From: a virus
Taxonomy: Duplodnaviria > Caudoviricetes
Length of the DNA stretch: 48,780 nt
IMG/VR virus record: IMGVR_UViG_3300044468_000005
Span: 1-48,780 of that record
Reading direction: 5' to 3' (one strand)
Part shown: piece after piece, positions 10,283 to 34,535 of the stretch
Position numbering within the stretch: the stretch's first letter is position 1
How the letters are laid out: each line of letters starts with the position of its first letter
Position numbers and translations under genes: made by a program
Notes under the pieces: generated by a model
What the model was told of the DNA's origin: nothing
Database searches by the model: none
What the model saw: only the letters and a program-made list of their open reading frames with translations

Positions 10283-11050
10283 CTAGTCGCTGTCATCACT
10301 TTTGTGCGCAAGAGGCGCACATGCATCGTACTTATCACGATGGAGCGTCGAGGTCGGTACTGCCCCGCCCCCTCCTGGCTGGGTGCCAGGCGTGCCGCTA
10401 CCAGCACTTCCGACGCACTCCTTCTTGTAGCGCTTTGGGTATGGCTTTGCTAGTGGCTTGAGGCGAGCCTGCATCTCGCTGTCGAGTGGCATCAGGTAGC
10501 GGTGCTTCCCTTCGAGCACGATGCGCGTGCACTCTGAGCGCTTTGGGCAGCGCCCTCTCTCCCCGAACTGCACTAAGATGCCAGTCGCGCTCGTTTCGCG
10601 GTTGTGCCAGATCCTGCCTCGCTTATCGCGCCATGCAGCGCCCTGCGCAGAACAGCCTGTGTAGATCCAGCCACCAGCCTGATAGATGCCTCCGTGGTGG
10701 TCTCGGTTAGGATCTGCAAACGAGACCACAATGCGCAGCCCTGGCGAGCGCTTGCGCAAGAACATGAGCGCCACTTTCACGATCCTCGACACAGGCGTGC
10801 TGTGCTCCCTGAGCGCAATGCGCGTAAGCTCGCAGCACTCTGTCTGCGCCAGACCGTATGGCTGGCCCATGTGCGAGTTGGCACCGCGAGAGAATATCAC
10901 AACGCCGATGAAACGACTGTCCTCCCAGACGCCCACCACGATCGCAGTCCCAGGCGGGACAGACTTCGAGTAGTGCCAGTGCTTGCAAGCGTGCCTTGCA
11001 GCAGCAGCGTTAGCCCAATCGAGGCGCAAGCTAGTTTTTTGCGAACTCAT
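10283..11050 (-). CDS. mom: Mom-family adenine-modification protein (GNAT fold)
   Basis: HWHYSKSVP, GVWEDSRFIGVVIF, ELTRIAL, VVSFADP..HHGGIYQAGGWIYTG and KHRYLMPL...PYPK. Confidence 0.88.
   Translation of the reverse strand: MSSQKTSLRLDWANAAAARHACKHWHYSKSVPPGTAIVVGVWEDSRFIGVVIFSRGANSHMGQPYGLAQTECCELTRIALREHSTPVSRIVKVALMFLRKRSPGLRIVVSFADPNRDHHGGIYQAGGWIYTGCSAQGAAWRDKRGRIWHNRETSATGILVQFGERGRCPKRSECTRIVLEGKHRYLMPLDSEMQARLKPLAKPYPKRYKKECVGSAGSGTPGTQPGGGGAVPTSTLHRDKYDACAPLAHKSDDSD
10341..10416 (-). tRNA. tRNA-Gly(CCC)-like element, non-canonical, embedded in the 3' end of mom
   Basis: 76 nt: GCGTCGG AA GTGC-TGGTAGCG-GCAC G CCTGG-CACCCAG-CCAGG AGG GGGCGG-GGCAGTA-CCGACC TCGACGC T CCA; all four arms pair, T discriminator and encoded CCA. 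Confidence 0.75.
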
Positions 11051-28025: not shown

Positions 28026-28062
28026 TAGACACTTGACGTCTACTCGTAGTTTGCATCATGGT
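28026..28062 (+). promoter_or_regulatory. Promoter of the RAMP/array operon, overlapped by a repressor-type operator
   Basis: TAGACA-cttga-CGTCTA (28026-28042) overlaps TTGACG(28033)-18-CATGGT(28057); ATG follows 7 nt later. Confidence 0.65.
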
Positions 28063-28069
28063 TCGCCAC

Positions 28070-28564
28070 ATGGGGGGAGACGTGCATACACACGCCGAAA
28101 TCGACCGTGCACTGAAGTTGGAGCAGTGGGGCCCCGGGCCATGGGTAGACGAGTGCGACCGGGCAGAATGGCGCTGCGAAGGCATCTTGTGTGTTCTGCG
28201 CCGTGACCAGAAGCTCGGCAGTTGGCGCGGCTTCGTTGGTGTCCCAGTGGGGCACCCGTGGCATGGGGTGGTGTCCCCAGCTGGGGTCACTGTCCATGGG
28301 GGCCTCATCTATGCTGCGCCCACTTGCGGCTCGTGCGCTGAGCGCCGTCCTGAGATGGCGCGCTTCTGGTGGCTGGGCTTCGACTGTGGCCACTGCTGGG
28401 ACTACCAGCCGGGGCTCGTGGCGCGCTTGGCGCGCCGATGCGGCCTAGGTCTGCACGAGTCGCGCATCGTGCATGAGGAGTTCGAGACGTATCGCACGCT
28501 GGACTACGCGCGCGAACAGGCTGAAGCGCTGGCGCGGCAGATCGTGCGCGCTGGCTGCTCATGA
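28070..28564 (+). CDS. Conserved phage hypothetical protein (GPW..E...HPWHG...VHGGL...WWLGFDCxH type)
   Basis: Motif recognition; first gene of the island operon. Confidence 0.75.
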   Translation: MGGDVHTHAEIDRALKLEQWGPGPWVDECDRAEWRCEGILCVLRRDQKLGSWRGFVGVPVGHPWHGVVSPAGVTVHGGLIYAAPTCGSCAERRPEMARFWWLGFDCGHCWDYQPGLVARLARRCGLGLHESRIVHEEFETYRTLDYAREQAEALARQIVRAGCS

Positions 28565-28576
28565 AAGGGGGCACAG

Positions 28577-29146
28577 GTGGATTCATTCGACGATGACGAG
28601 ATGCCATTTGTGGGGCCTGTGGTGCTAGGGCTTGCCACGCTCGACGGTTTTCGCACAGAGCGCGGTTGTCGGTCGCTGTTGCGCTACGTGGAAAATGCTG
28701 TGACGGACACCTTTCTCGAGGATGGCGGGCTGCAGCTCAGCTTCTTCGTATTCACGCGTCGTCAGCCCGTCTCGGGCGAGCCTCTCGATGGTGAATGCCT
28801 TGGCCCGGGCATGCGTGCGTTGCTGAAGCGCGAAATTGGTGTGCTCAGTCAGATATCGCTGCGCCCTGGTGTCGCATACACGGCGAACAACGAAGCGCTA
28901 CTTCATGCTGCGGTCGGCGTGGCATGCGAGCAAGGCCAGGCGGCAGCCGTCATCATGTCGTCTCCAGTCACGTCGAAAACGCCGGAGCAGAGCCCGCGGC
29001 GTGGCCTGTATTTGTGCCTGGAGACTGAGCGTATCGTCATAGGGCGCATGGCCCCTGTATCTGACGATGAGCAGCTCGGCGCCTGGGACGACGCCCCTGC
29101 AGCGCTCGGCGATTTCATCCCTCCTATGCCCATGGGGACAGCATGA
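28577..29146 (+). CDS. Hypothetical protein
   Basis: 189-aa ORF with AAGGGGG RBS. Confidence 0.65.
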   Translation: MDSFDDDEMPFVGPVVLGLATLDGFRTERGCRSLLRYVENAVTDTFLEDGGLQLSFFVFTRRQPVSGEPLDGECLGPGMRALLKREIGVLSQISLRPGVAYTANNEALLHAAVGVACEQGQAAAVIMSSPVTSKTPEQSPRRGLYLCLETERIVIGRMAPVSDDEQLGAWDDAPAALGDFIPPMPMGTA

Positions 29147-29403
29147 CGACGATCGAAGAGCGTGACGAGCGCCTGCGCGCAGCGCTGCGGGCCAACATGC
29201 GCATGGCTGTCATGCACGTCGAGCTCGTGGCGCGCATGCGTGAGAGCTCGAACCAGTTGCTAGGGCTATTGAATCACCCGCACATGGCGCCGCAACTGGC
29301 AGAGCACCTAACGTGCATTGCGCTGCGCCTGGCGGATGGGGCTGTCGATGCTGCCGAAGAGGCAGCGCGTGTTACGTCGACTATGAGTAAGGGGGATGCA
29401 TGA
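29143..29403 (+). CDS. Small helical hypothetical protein
   Basis: ATGA overlaps at both ends. Confidence 0.65.
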   Translation: MTTIEERDERLRAALRANMRMAVMHVELVARMRESSNQLLGLLNHPHMAPQLAEHLTCIALRLADGAVDAAEEAARVTSTMSKGDA

Positions 29404-30098
29404 AGGCCGTCGATATCATCACTGCGGATAAGAAGGCAGCGGACAGTCGCAAGCTGATCTTCGAGAAACCAGACATCCGCGTTGCGTCGTTCGCGATCAC
29501 TGGCAATGCGCCCTACGTGCAAAACCGGTTCGCGAATAAGGCCGAGATCATGGCCAAGCAGAGCGCCGGCAGCACGGCAAACAAGGGCACGAAGAAAGAG
29601 GCGAAGGACTTCGACGAGTGCTACCTGCGCGCTCAGCATCGCAGCACCGAGGGCTGGATCGGCATTCCTGCGGGGTCGTTTCGCGCAGGCATGATCAGCG
29701 CATGCAGGCTCGTCGGGTTCAAGATGACGCTAGCAAAGTTGAGCGTCTTCGTTGAATGCGACGGCTATGACGTCGACGGCAATCCGCTCATCAAGCTCGA
29801 GGGCGAGCCTGAAATGCATACAGCATACGTGCGCAATGATACGGGTGTGATCGACATTCGCGCCCGGCCCATGTTCAAGCAGTGGTCATGCGTGCTGCGC
29901 GTTCGCTATGACGCGCATCAGTTCACCGTGCAAGACATCGCGAATCTGCTCGCGCGCGTTGGCGCGCAGGTCGGCATTGGTGAAGGCAGACCAGATTCAA
30001 AAGACAGCGCTGGCATGGGCTGGGGCACGTTCGAGGTCATGCTATGCCCAGCTGAGGAGCCTGCGCTGATAGACTTACCGCGAAAGCGGCCATCATGA
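29400..30098 (+). CDS. Stand-alone RAMP/Cas7-like RNA-binding protein (putative Vipr-type effector)
   Basis: ITGNAPYVQN first strand, IPAGSFRAGMISA (compare IPGSSxKG), C-terminal Gly-rich loop GIGEGRP...GMGWGTFEV; directly followed by the GGY-NN array. Confidence 0.8.
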   Translation: MKAVDIITADKKAADSRKLIFEKPDIRVASFAITGNAPYVQNRFANKAEIMAKQSAGSTANKGTKKEAKDFDECYLRAQHRSTEGWIGIPAGSFRAGMISACRLVGFKMTLAKLSVFVECDGYDVDGNPLIKLEGEPEMHTAYVRNDTGVIDIRARPMFKQWSCVLRVRYDAHQFTVQDIANLLARVGAQVGIGEGRPDSKDSAGMGWGTFEVMLCPAEEPALIDLPRKRPS

Positions 30099-30104
30099 GG
30101 CTCA

Positions 30105-30804
30105 GGTGCGGCGAGGCAATGCGGTCAAGGCATGGCCAGGCGCGCTCTCGCTGAGCGCGGCTCGGCAAGGCAGCGCAGGCGTGGCGGGGATAGGCTGGGC
30201 TCGGATATGGCCAGGCACGGCAGGCGAGGCTCGGCGAGGCTGGGAACGGCAAGGCTCGGCAGGCGAGGCTGGGCATGCGTAGGTAAGGCGTGGCGAGGCA
30301 GCGCAGGCATGGCGCGGCGGCGCGGGGTGCAGCAGCGCAGGGCAAGGCATGGCAGGCAAGGCAAGGCTAGGGCTGGTTAGGCGCGGCAGGGCGAAGCGCG
30401 GCAGGCAAGGCAAGGCTCGGCTGCGCATGGCACGTCAAGGCGCGCATCGGCAGGGCATGGCAGGCGAGGCCTGGACAGGCGGAGCGAGGATTGGCGCGAC
30501 ACGGCTGGGTGCGGCTCGGCAGGCGAGGCTAGGATTGGCGCAGCGGGGCACGGTTCGGCAAGGCAGGCGGCGCTGGGCAGGGCTTGGTGCGGCATGGACG
30601 GTAAGGCAAGGCATGGCGGGCGAGGCGTGGCTTGGTACGGCCGGGCGGGGTCTGCATGGCGCGGCAGGCCTGGCTGGGCGGGGCACGGTTCGACGTCACG
30701 GAGCGGGGCACGGCGCGGCAGGCATGGCGGGGCGCCGAACGGCCAGGGGAGGCAGAGTGCGGCAAGGCACGGCAGGCATGGCGGGGTGTGGCACGGCTCG
30801 GTCT
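30105..30804 (+). ncRNA. GGY-NN pentamer array 1 (about 13-14 guide-like units separated by GGCA-type tetramers)
   Basis: Near-strict 5-nt phase of GG(C/T)NN; phase reset by 4-mers at 30174, 30219, 30258, 30302, 30351, 30400, 30459, 30518, 30562, 30615, 30663, 30717 and 30771. Confidence 0.8.
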
Positions 30805-30953
30805 CCGACGTGCTGCGCTTCGCGCTGGCGCGCGGCCTGGCTGCTCTCGAGGCCGACGCCGCCCCGAAGGCGCGCCGCACGCGCGCAGGCGCATCCCGAC
30901 GACGATGACGAGCCGAGGACGTGTACGGAACAGGGCAGGGGAGGAGAAGGGCG

Positions 30954-31211
30954 ATGGGCGAAGCGAGACTGTTAGTGCACATGACCGAGGACGACCTGCG
31001 CGCCGTCGTACGCGACGAGATGGAGCGGGCCGCTGCCAATAACCAGCCTGAGCAGCTCACGGTGGACGAGGCCGCGAAGTACATGCGGCGCAGCACGAAG
31101 ACAATCCGGCGCTACCTCGCCGTGGGGCGGCTGCGCGGCGCGCGCATCGCTGGCGGACAGGTGCTAGTTGAGCGCGCGTCGATCGACAGGCTGCTGCAGA
31201 AGGCCGGCTGA
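30954..31211 (+). CDS. Excisionase-like HTH protein between the two arrays
   Basis: LTVDEAAKYMRRSTKTIRRYLAVGRL; GAGGAG RBS; similar to 3994-4311. Confidence 0.8.
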   Translation: MGEARLLVHMTEDDLRAVVRDEMERAAANNQPEQLTVDEAAKYMRRSTKTIRRYLAVGRLRGARIAGGQVLVERASIDRLLQKAG

Positions 31212-31287
31212 CTTGCTCTTCCCTTCGAGCGTCGCCAGCACCTCTTCAGCAAGCTCCTCGATGCCCATGGCGGCCTCGAGCGTCTTG

Positions 31288-31536
31288 GGCATGGCTTGGT
31301 TGGGCGCGGCTCGGCAAGGCACGACAGGCAAGGCTGGGCCAGGCAAGGTGGGGCGACGCATGGCAGCGCAGGCAAGGCGTGGTGAGCGAACGCTAGGCCT
31401 GGTGAGGCATGGCAGGCGAGGCATGGCAGGCACGGCTGGGCTGGGCCAGGTAGAGCGAGGCTCGCACCGGCAAGGCATGGCGGGCGAGGCGTGGCTTGGT
31501 ACGGCTAGGATTGGCGCAGCGAAGCGCGGCAGGTTC
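31288..31536 (+). ncRNA. GGY-NN pentamer array 2 (about 6 units)
   Basis: Same grammar as array 1; tetramers at 31323, 31367, 31411, 31425, 31479 and 31528. Confidence 0.78.
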
Positions 31537-31796: not shown

Positions 31797-31831
31797 TTGA
31801 CAGATAGCCTGGGCGCGTCTATATTCTAGAC
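31797..31831 (+). promoter_or_regulatory. Leaderless promoter of hicAB
   Basis: TTGACA-17-TATATT-6-ATG; palindrome TGACATGCATGTCA immediately upstream. Confidence 0.75.
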
Positions 31832-32038
31832 ATGACTGCGGACGAGATTGCCCGGATCCTGCAGCGCCGCGGATGCACGTGGCGCCAGGGCAAGGGTTCG
31901 CACCGGTTCTACATGTGCGGCGACTGCTGCACGACGGTGCTGGCGATGCATCGGGGCGATATCCCACGCGGAACGCTGCGCAGCATCGTGCGCGATCTAG
32001 AGCCGTGCCTGGGTCGAGATTGGCACAAGGAGGAGTGA
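31832..32038 (+). CDS. hicA: HicA toxin (mRNA interferase)
   Basis: RQGKGSH...H.GDIPRGTLRSI. Confidence 0.9.
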   Translation: MTADEIARILQRRGCTWRQGKGSHRFYMCGDCCTTVLAMHRGDIPRGTLRSIVRDLEPCLGRDWHKEE

Positions 32039-32040
32039 CG

Positions 32041-32427
32041 ATGGAGTACCGAGTGGTTTACACGCCGGAGGCAGATGGGCGATGGAATGCTGAGATCCCA
32101 CCTGGCCCGGGACACTGCGCGACGTGGGGCAGATCCCTGCGCGAGGCGCGCGCCCACATTCGCGATGCTCTCGCGACAGCTCTAGGTGATGACAAAGCGG
32201 GCGATGAGGCAGTGCTGCTCGAGGAGTTCAGGCTCCCGGAAGCCAAGCGCCTGAAAGGCCTCAGGGCTCGTCGCGAGAAGGTCGAGCAGAGCGTGCAAGA
32301 GCTCGCCTCAGAGACTGCTGACATCGCCCGCAAACTGCGCGCCGAAGGCTTTAGCCTGCGTGACATCGCTGAGCTCGTCGGCACGAGCCACCAGCGCGTT
32401 CAGCAGTGGGTCGCATCAGGTCGCTAA
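32041..32427 (+). CDS. hicB: HicB antitoxin with C-terminal HTH
   Basis: W.AEIP...CATWGRSLREA...DAL; C-terminal GFSLRDIAELVGTSHQRVQQ. Confidence 0.88.
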   Translation: MEYRVVYTPEADGRWNAEIPPGPGHCATWGRSLREARAHIRDALATALGDDKAGDEAVLLEEFRLPEAKRLKGLRARREKVEQSVQELASETADIARKLRAEGFSLRDIAELVGTSHQRVQQWVASGR

Positions 32428-32468: not shown

Positions 32469-32730
32469 TGCGTCGGAGTTCGCCACTAGCTACGGCGCTC
32501 CTCCTATCTGAGACAGACGAGCAGCTCGAGGGCTTCGGCTCCCGAGCCGTTCGCCTTGTGCGCGCCTGCTGCGTGTCGTAGCGTCCCGAGCACTATTGGT
32601 ACTGTAACCCCAGGCATGGGGTGACCCCCAATCGTGAACAGGCTAGCGGCTCGGCAATGGTGCCGGGCCGCTTGTCTATCAGGGCCAGCCTCACGTGGTG
32701 AGCCGGCACACCAGCCTGTCGTGTCGTGCA
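32469..32730 (+). ncRNA. Unassigned structured non-coding RNA (multi-hairpin)
   Basis: Stems 32489-98/32573-82, 32646-56/32661-71 and 32638-44/32713-19, plus a cUUCGg hairpin at 32533; G-U pairs favour the + strand; possible promoter TTGTGC-18-TAGGGT at 32433-32462. Confidence 0.6.
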
Positions 32731-33829: not shown

Positions 33830-34477
33830 TCACGGCTCGTCTGGGTTATCGGCGCACTGATTGTTTTGTGTCTGCAGGAACACCTCGGTGAACTCGCCCT
33901 CGGTGAATGGCAGGCACTCTGGGTCGCCCGTCGAGACCTCCTCGAACTTGTTATCACATGCGACCTGGAAGTTTACGCCGCACGCATCGGTTGCGAGACG
34001 CGTGAATAGGTCCCCTAGTCCGAGGCCATCGAGCGCGATCGACAGCGCGCAATAAAGGTGGGCGGAAACCTCCCCGATGAACTCGCCATCGAGGATGCAC
34101 GCATCGATGCATTGCTCCTGCAGGTCGGCGATGCGCTTCAACAGGCCGGCGATCTGCCCAAGTACGTGGCATTTCACCGCCTGGCTGGGGGATGCCGGAA
34201 GCTCTGCCTCTGCATCCTCCGCAGCAGCCTGGATGATCGCCTGCAGGTGATCGATTCGGGGCTGGTCGTGACAGAGGTCTGTCGGGTCATTGGGCGCCAA
34301 GCGGGCGATGGCCTGACCTGCTAAGTTGCGCCCCTTCAGCGCGCCGAGATTGAAAAACCGCGCATTGCGCGGCGCAGCGCACTCTGACGGCACCGGCTGC
34401 GCACTGGCCGTCGCGGGCGTGAATCCGGCGCACACTGCCACAACTAGGACTGCTAAGAGCGATAACGCGTTTCGCAT
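33830..34477 (-). CDS. Secreted cysteine-rich protein
   Basis: Signal peptide MRNALSLLAVLVVAVCAGFTPATASA; 10 Cys in the mature part; AGGAGG RBS. Confidence 0.75.
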   Translation of the reverse strand: MRNALSLLAVLVVAVCAGFTPATASAQPVPSECAAPRNARFFNLGALKGRNLAGQAIARLAPNDPTDLCHDQPRIDHLQAIIQAAAEDAEAELPASPSQAVKCHVLGQIAGLLKRIADLQEQCIDACILDGEFIGEVSAHLYCALSIALDGLGLGDLFTRLATDACGVNFQVACDNKFEEVSTGDPECLPFTEGEFTEVFLQTQNNQCADNPDEP

Positions 34478-34535
34478 GATTCCCCTCCTGAGCGCGTGAG
34501 CATGCACGAGCCCCTGCCCAGTGTACGCGCAAAAC

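Follow-up and report, generated by a model that had tools for sequence, protein, structure and literature searches.

The two blocks of GGY/NN pentamer repeats downstream of a vipr gene in this phage genome are, judged on sequence, very probably a staggered VIPR guide array that would serve to silence competing phages. The reading draws on the established grammar of the repeats, the homology and fold of the Vipr protein, the same-strand linkage of gene and array in relatives, and the bias at the junctions between units; with real pentamer repeats adjacent to a Cas7-like gene, an identity as back-to-back guide RNAs is very likely. VIPR, its 1-nt-skip rule, wobble alignment and repression were defined in bioRxiv 10.64898/2026.04.26.720920. 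Both the system and its staggered layout were thus already described in 2026, and the locus reported here is an additional one, extending the family by one complete phage genome and its roughly 18 tail-less guide units (both arrays).

The window, i.e. the whole 48,780-nucleotide stretch analysed, is an entire IMG/VR record whose ends overlap, with one contig joining end to start, so the genome is complete and circular (48.8 kb). Matches to PHROGs include terminase, portal, major head, tail sheath, baseplate, RecE/RecT, integrase and excisionase, and by this gene content the phage is temperate and contractile-tailed; terminase, portal, sheath and integrase also place the locus in the viral or proviral setting that characterizes VIPR. 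All four runs containing words of the phage are labelled soil metagenome; a single one of them contains at least half of the words and is possibly the source. No host was found from terminase, integrase or capsid relatives: terminase relatives in GTDB genomes were 41–49% identical, and of 251 weak capsid matches five (23–30%) came from the class to which the Polyangia genome L201 belongs.

Table 1. Coordinates of features in and around the vipr locus (positions in the window; junctions are GGCA where no tetramer is given)
Feature	Position	Strand	Remarks
Three co-oriented genes 5' of vipr	28058-28564, 28577-29146, 29143-29403	+	Within the same inserted block
vipr, RAMP/Cas7-like, 232 aa	29400..30098	+	Homology and predicted fold
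Array 1	30105..30804	+	Staggered GGY/NN; 12 internal units bounded by 13 junctions, with lead-in and end units outside them
Array 1 junctions, first part	30174 (CGCA), 30219, 30258, 30302 (CGCA), 30351, 30400, 30459
Array 1 junctions, rest	30518, 30562, 30615 (GGCG), 30663, 30717, 30771
37-bp exact direct repeat, copy 1	30605..30641	+	Spans the GGCG junction
Excisionase-like HTH_17 gene	30921..31211	+	Between the array blocks; Pfam PF12728, E 4.6e-10; TIGR01764
Array 2	31288..31532	+	Grammar of array 1; five units of 7–10 pentamers and one 2-pentamer stub
37-bp exact direct repeat, copy 2	31469..31505	+
Last unit of array 2	31483..31531	+	Sole unit with a candidate target (weak; sister phage L084)

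The gene at 29400-30098, whose stop lies six bases 5' of array 1, is by homology and modelling a Vipr homologue with a Csm3/Cas7 fold. The protein belongs to no family in Pfam or NCBIfam and has 6804 homologues. A profile of 86 sequences (the query and 85 of the 119 homologues listed, out of 6804 in all) had SUSP1 Vipr (36pp_D) as its only PDB profile match (E 6.3e-6; E 0.004 with the single sequence). The AlphaFold model (pLDDT 85.8) matched Csm3/Cas7 in Foldseek (best E 2.5e-5), and a VIA alignment with Csm3/Cas7 gave Z 11.4 and rmsd 3.5 with 139 aligned. SUSP1 R138 and R179 align with the family-invariant R156 and R197, and SUSP1 D177 with the invariant E195, while the G-loop tryptophan of SUSP1 (W178) aligns with G196. 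According to bioRxiv 10.64898/2026.04.26.720927, R138, D177 and R179 are RNA contacts in the Vipr structure, and SUSP1 Vipr binds GGY/NN-type RNAs in the solved structures. A RAMP fold with thumb and G-loop is thus found here outside a CRISPR locus, as is typical of VIPR, with no cas neighbours and no cas gene besides the Cas7-like vipr among the 68 proteins scanned against PHROGs.

Adjacent to vipr lie the non-coding YNNGG repeats (at least four) with fixed GGY and variable NN that define a VIPR locus. All 11 ORFs of at least 45 aa that overlap array 1 have a negative codon score under the genome's own codon model. Array 1 has 70 GGY pairs at lag 5, whereas 300 dinucleotide shuffles averaged 7.2 and never exceeded 16. 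The register slips by −1, not +1, penalty-free counts giving 12 pairs at lag 4 vs 2 at lag 6 and, likewise, 25 at lag 9 vs 3 at lag 11. As an earlier note on this DNA had noticed, the slips are mostly GGCA, also CGCA and GGCG (10, 2 and 1 of 13), and segmentation reproduced in place all nine NN strings that the note had read by eye. GGC directly follows each of the 13 junctions, i.e. consecutive units overlap by 1 nt at the DNA level, and the first NN after the junction is GA, AA or AT in 10 of them. Nine of the 12 internal units (39–59 nt) are exactly 5n+4 long, with 7–11 pentamers; unit 30178-30222 has one surplus base, and units 30566-30618 and 30619-30666 each lack one. These three irregular units were left off the list in the earlier note, so its statement that the phase holds has exceptions.

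Outside the two arrays, neither strand of the genome has a run of at least four in-phase GGY; the GGY-like stretch at 32603-32660 was rejected as an array on segmentation. An Rfam scan of the whole window gave zero matches, CRISPR repeats included. Positions 30286-30482 (197 bases) are not an assembly artefact, because run X2, an independent run of another study, has a contig that is identical to them.

We compared the window with 81 homologous vipr loci (80 from IMG/VR plus Cy-LDV1), 77 of which carry arrays. Counting the window, vipr and array share a strand in all 145 blocks, and a phase break is 4 nt long in 474 of 479 cases (GGCA 348, CGCA 79); the segmentation penalized 6-nt breaks more than 4-nt breaks, but the lag counts in the window, which carry no penalty, give the same picture. 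A length of 7–11 pentamers was found in 218 of 230 pooled units (218 from homologues and 12 from the window). The first NN was GA, AA or AT in 123/230 of these units vs 347/1317 at inner positions, which bears out the bias noticed earlier, and the last NN, absent from that note, was more biased still (AA, AC or AT in 163/230). Entropy of the NN was 3.9 bits at inner positions (near-random), 3.4 at the first and 2.9 at the last. Guide-sized units, a conserved 4-nt shift and biased junctions, as proposed from the window sequence, are therefore supported by the 77 array-bearing loci and by the published staggered vrRNA layout, and pooling the junctions yields a definite motif (first NN GA/AA/AT; last NN A-rich) for the step at which staggered arrays would be processed. 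The note further proposed selection on spacing rather than slippage; slippage and recombination do act as well, as seen in the three irregular units, the 2-pentamer stub at 31415 and the 37-bp duplication.

Inner NN (210 non-redundant homologue units) fitted best to codon positions 1-2 of phage genes (logL −3893, vs −3943 for uniform, −3976 for positions 2-3 and −4170 for positions 3-1), and their dinucleotide bias was genome-like (r 0.86); the codon-frame fit is not decisive because the other frames also correlate (residual r 0.78 and 0.69). Strand coherence of guides, with p 0.008 pooled but 0.33 in a within-locus permutation, was dropped. In the homologue arrays (L001-L081), Y of GGY varies with the base that comes after it, GGC being used before C in 118/208 cases (57%) vs 473/554 (85%) before A (p 1e-13, C vs the other three bases), an avoidance that may limit RNA self-pairing. 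The same GGCA grammar was present in five cultured actinophages (Donkeykong, Brocalys, Quico, Pipp and ODay), ready-made bench models for staggered VIPR arrays. Two of these five records have the arrays annotated as hypothetical genes, and related actinophages among the five differ by whole units.

Array 1 and array 2 share the exact repeat of 37 bp and a stretch of 19 bp, and seven exact repeats of 17–37 nt exist between units, which shows that recombination reshuffles the guides. Recombination across the 37-bp pair would delete 864 bp and with them the HTH gene; a joint of this kind was not seen in the four runs, and the second 37-bp copy forms a separate 37-nt contig of double depth in the run X1 assembly. 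In the sister phage L084, the closest of the phages compared (terminase 64%; next 51%), genes for head morphogenesis, an HTH protein and a protease adjoin one another with no VIPR between them, and the block 28058-31532 therefore behaves as an inserted cassette. The first of the three genes upstream of vipr matches phrog_2164, and the three (28058..29403) had no tblastn match in the 81 vipr loci or in L084. An excisionase-like gene 3' of vipr and the accessory gene also occurs in Cy-LDV1 and three mycobacteriophages. The frame exiting array 1 (30789-30908) resembles, by eye, the last part of a small DNA-binding protein, and is possibly a gene remnant split by insertion of the cassette.

Staggered arrays with overlapping vrRNAs, where the end of one vrRNA is the start of the next, were found in one paper of the literature searched (bioRxiv 10.64898/2026.04.26.720920); further VIPR literature is bioRxiv 10.64898/2026.10.21.760802. 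The legend of fig. S18 in the former describes individually processed vrRNAs with 1-nt overlaps. This processing may be a prediction, because the text claims RNA sequencing for arrays of the ribozyme and single-guide kinds and makes no such claim for staggered arrays. The present locus resembles staggered-array VIPR in its stand-alone Vipr, GGY/NN pentamers, units offset by one base and phage-borne location with no cas or CRISPR seen, but differs from that clade in having no accessory-gene homologue and two blocks split by an excisionase-like gene. With the type II VIPR of SUSP1 it shares a homologous Vipr, the thumb arginine, the acidic and arginine positions of the G-loop and the pentamer motif. 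SUSP1 guides, as described in PDB 36pp and in bioRxiv 10.64898/2026.04.26.720927 and 10.64898/2026.10.15.759431, are about 100 nt long with 9–16 repeats, a pseudoknot tail and vap1, whereas the units here are tail-less, with 39–59 nt and 7–11 repeats, and Vipr has glycine in place of the G-loop tryptophan. The invariant structured 3' tail of type II is thus absent, units abutting directly. Class 1 CRISPR RAMPs (Csm3/Cas7) are similar in the fold of the Vipr model, but use contiguous spacers instead of a gapped pentamer code, and the cas operon and repeat-spacer array of class 1 CRISPR-Cas were not found here.

Under the guide-array reading, transcription of the array would likely give a single precursor, to be cut near each slip from GGCA to G into 40–60-nt guides, which would direct Vipr to silence the DNA of competing phages. 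By analogy with the published type II system, one Vipr per pentamer would hide GGY, the NN would pair with double-stranded DNA with every third base skipped, and binding of guide and Vipr would block transcription. The 4-nt step may break the register of the Vipr filament and so mark the guide end, standing in for the structured 3' tail of SUSP1 guides, and the A-rich last NN may be a boundary signal, not code.

The decodable NN code proposed in the earlier note equals the published 1-nt-skip rule of VIPR, while gapped searches for array units remained at chance and the database search it suggested, with gapped patterns, gave nothing above chance or controls. In the phage's own genome (18 units × 4 skips) a single nominal match was obtained, between unit 30355 and the HTH gene at 31143-31169 (minus strand; 15/18, skip 1), and was read as chance, the skip falling on codon position 1 in one of 72 tests. 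Units showed no enrichment over controls in 242 loci, none of 14 units from the five actinophage genomes beat controls, and a search for targeting of vipr genes (15 units vs 120 proteins) was negative. At skip 1, 161 homologue guides against 302 sequences gave matches with at most two mismatches for 32, vs 25 of 161 when shuffled, and with at most one mismatch for none.

The six collection scans were exact, with zero mismatches and no shuffled pattern, and covered five of the 15 longer units. With 18 specified bases, IMG/VR gave 1, 1 and 0 matches for units 30404, 30463 and 30721; both matches (19/22, skip at codon position 2, unrelated genes) were rejected. With 16 bases, unit 31483 gave 16 loci, at which the next NN was never fully matched, and unit 31429 gave 12 loci reaching at most 17/20; these too were discarded. 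Twenty bases of unit 30463 hit two near-identical methyltransferase-like genes in JGI metagenomes, set aside for a skip at codon position 1 and an unmatched last NN. Exact-match counts drop about 16-fold per two added bases, as expected by chance. These target tests are weak, because they include neither the host nor close relatives and, in the collections, tolerate no mismatch. The terminases of the phage's closer relatives are 58–80% identical.

One candidate target, noticed post hoc, lies in L084 at 10500-10526 (minus strand), within a phrog_302 virion gene, where unit 31483 matches 16/18 at skip 1 with every skipped base at a third codon position. The phage's own copy of this gene region differs at the site, and the unit reaches at most 9/18 anywhere in it. 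Shuffles of unit 31483 reached 16 in L084 once in 5000, and family-wide rounds 0/322 times; 1 of 161 unrelated guides reached 16/18 in L084, and over all loci two real matches compare with 0–5 in most null rounds. No second copy of the L084 gene was found in IMG/VR, nor did contigs of runs X1-X4 cover the site. We regard the match as a possible but doubtful real target.

An accessory gene of roughly 150–200 aa was found by profile search in 74 of the 81 homologous loci. Its designation as a named vap rests on position, and its profile had no match in SUSP1. No homologue of the family was found with this profile in the complete 48.8-kb genome of the window, where an unrelated gene may conceivably take its place. 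Five of the seven homologous loci without the gene end at most 320 bases from vipr, and homologue L016 has no accessory gene within 6 kb downstream. Among the gap ORFs listed, 10 of 11 are accessory-type genes lying between two array blocks, and since the gene often sits there, its loss through recombination between blocks is plausible, albeit inferred. The vap accessory gene is typical of VIPR, not universal, and Vipr plus vrRNA alone repress in Escherichia coli (bioRxiv 10.64898/2026.04.26.720920), while SUSP1 requires vap1 against its satellite, according to bioRxiv 10.64898/2026.10.15.759431. Lacking a gene that nearly all its relatives keep, the locus is a natural test of the need for it.

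A decaying VIPR, having lost its accessory gene, probably by block recombination, and with an array drifting by slippage in which many units are targetless, would account for the missing homologue, the frequent position of that gene between blocks, the three irregular units, the stub, the seven exact repeats between units and the zero targets found in searches. We consider it unlikely: vipr is intact and keeps the family-invariant residues, register is kept in nine of 12 units, Vipr and vrRNA suffice for repression in E. coli, L016 likewise lacks the gene in the 6 kb downstream, and the absence of close relatives and host from the collections is sufficient reason for finding no targets. A specific picture of a working, accessory-free VIPR has Vipr alone acting on sister phages with tail-less guides cut between GGCA and G. 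In it, the last guide of array 2 would address an L084-like head-completion gene at a site lost from the phage's own copy, and new guides would arise by recombination between units and blocks; in this full form the picture is distinctly improbable.

That the array acts as one long RNA or as uncut overlapping windows, the tetramer only resetting the filament register, seems quite unlikely. RNA folding gave z > −2 for 10 of 12 pieces, with no common fold, hairpin or tail among units, and no processing nuclease gene is evident beside the array, both as uncut RNA would have it, but unit length is tight (7–11 pentamers in 218/230) and the published legend names individually processed vrRNAs, perhaps as a prediction. 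A GGCNN microsatellite or DNA-level element (protein-binding array or recombination hot spot) with no guide role could claim the internal duplications and the negative target searches, but is highly improbable in view of the strict linkage and co-orientation with vipr (77/81 loci), the −1 shift in 474/479 breaks, the lack of in-phase runs of at least four GGY elsewhere in the genome, and the binding of such RNAs by Vipr in solved structures (bioRxiv 10.64898/2026.04.26.720927).

Downstream of the guide array, a cysteine-rich gene of 225 aa (33830-34507, minus strand) has a signal-peptide-like start and no family match. HicA (31832-32038) and a HicB-like protein (about 32041-32427) form a toxin–antitoxin pair (31797-32427) located 3' of a near-consensus sigma-70 promoter with 11/12 matches.
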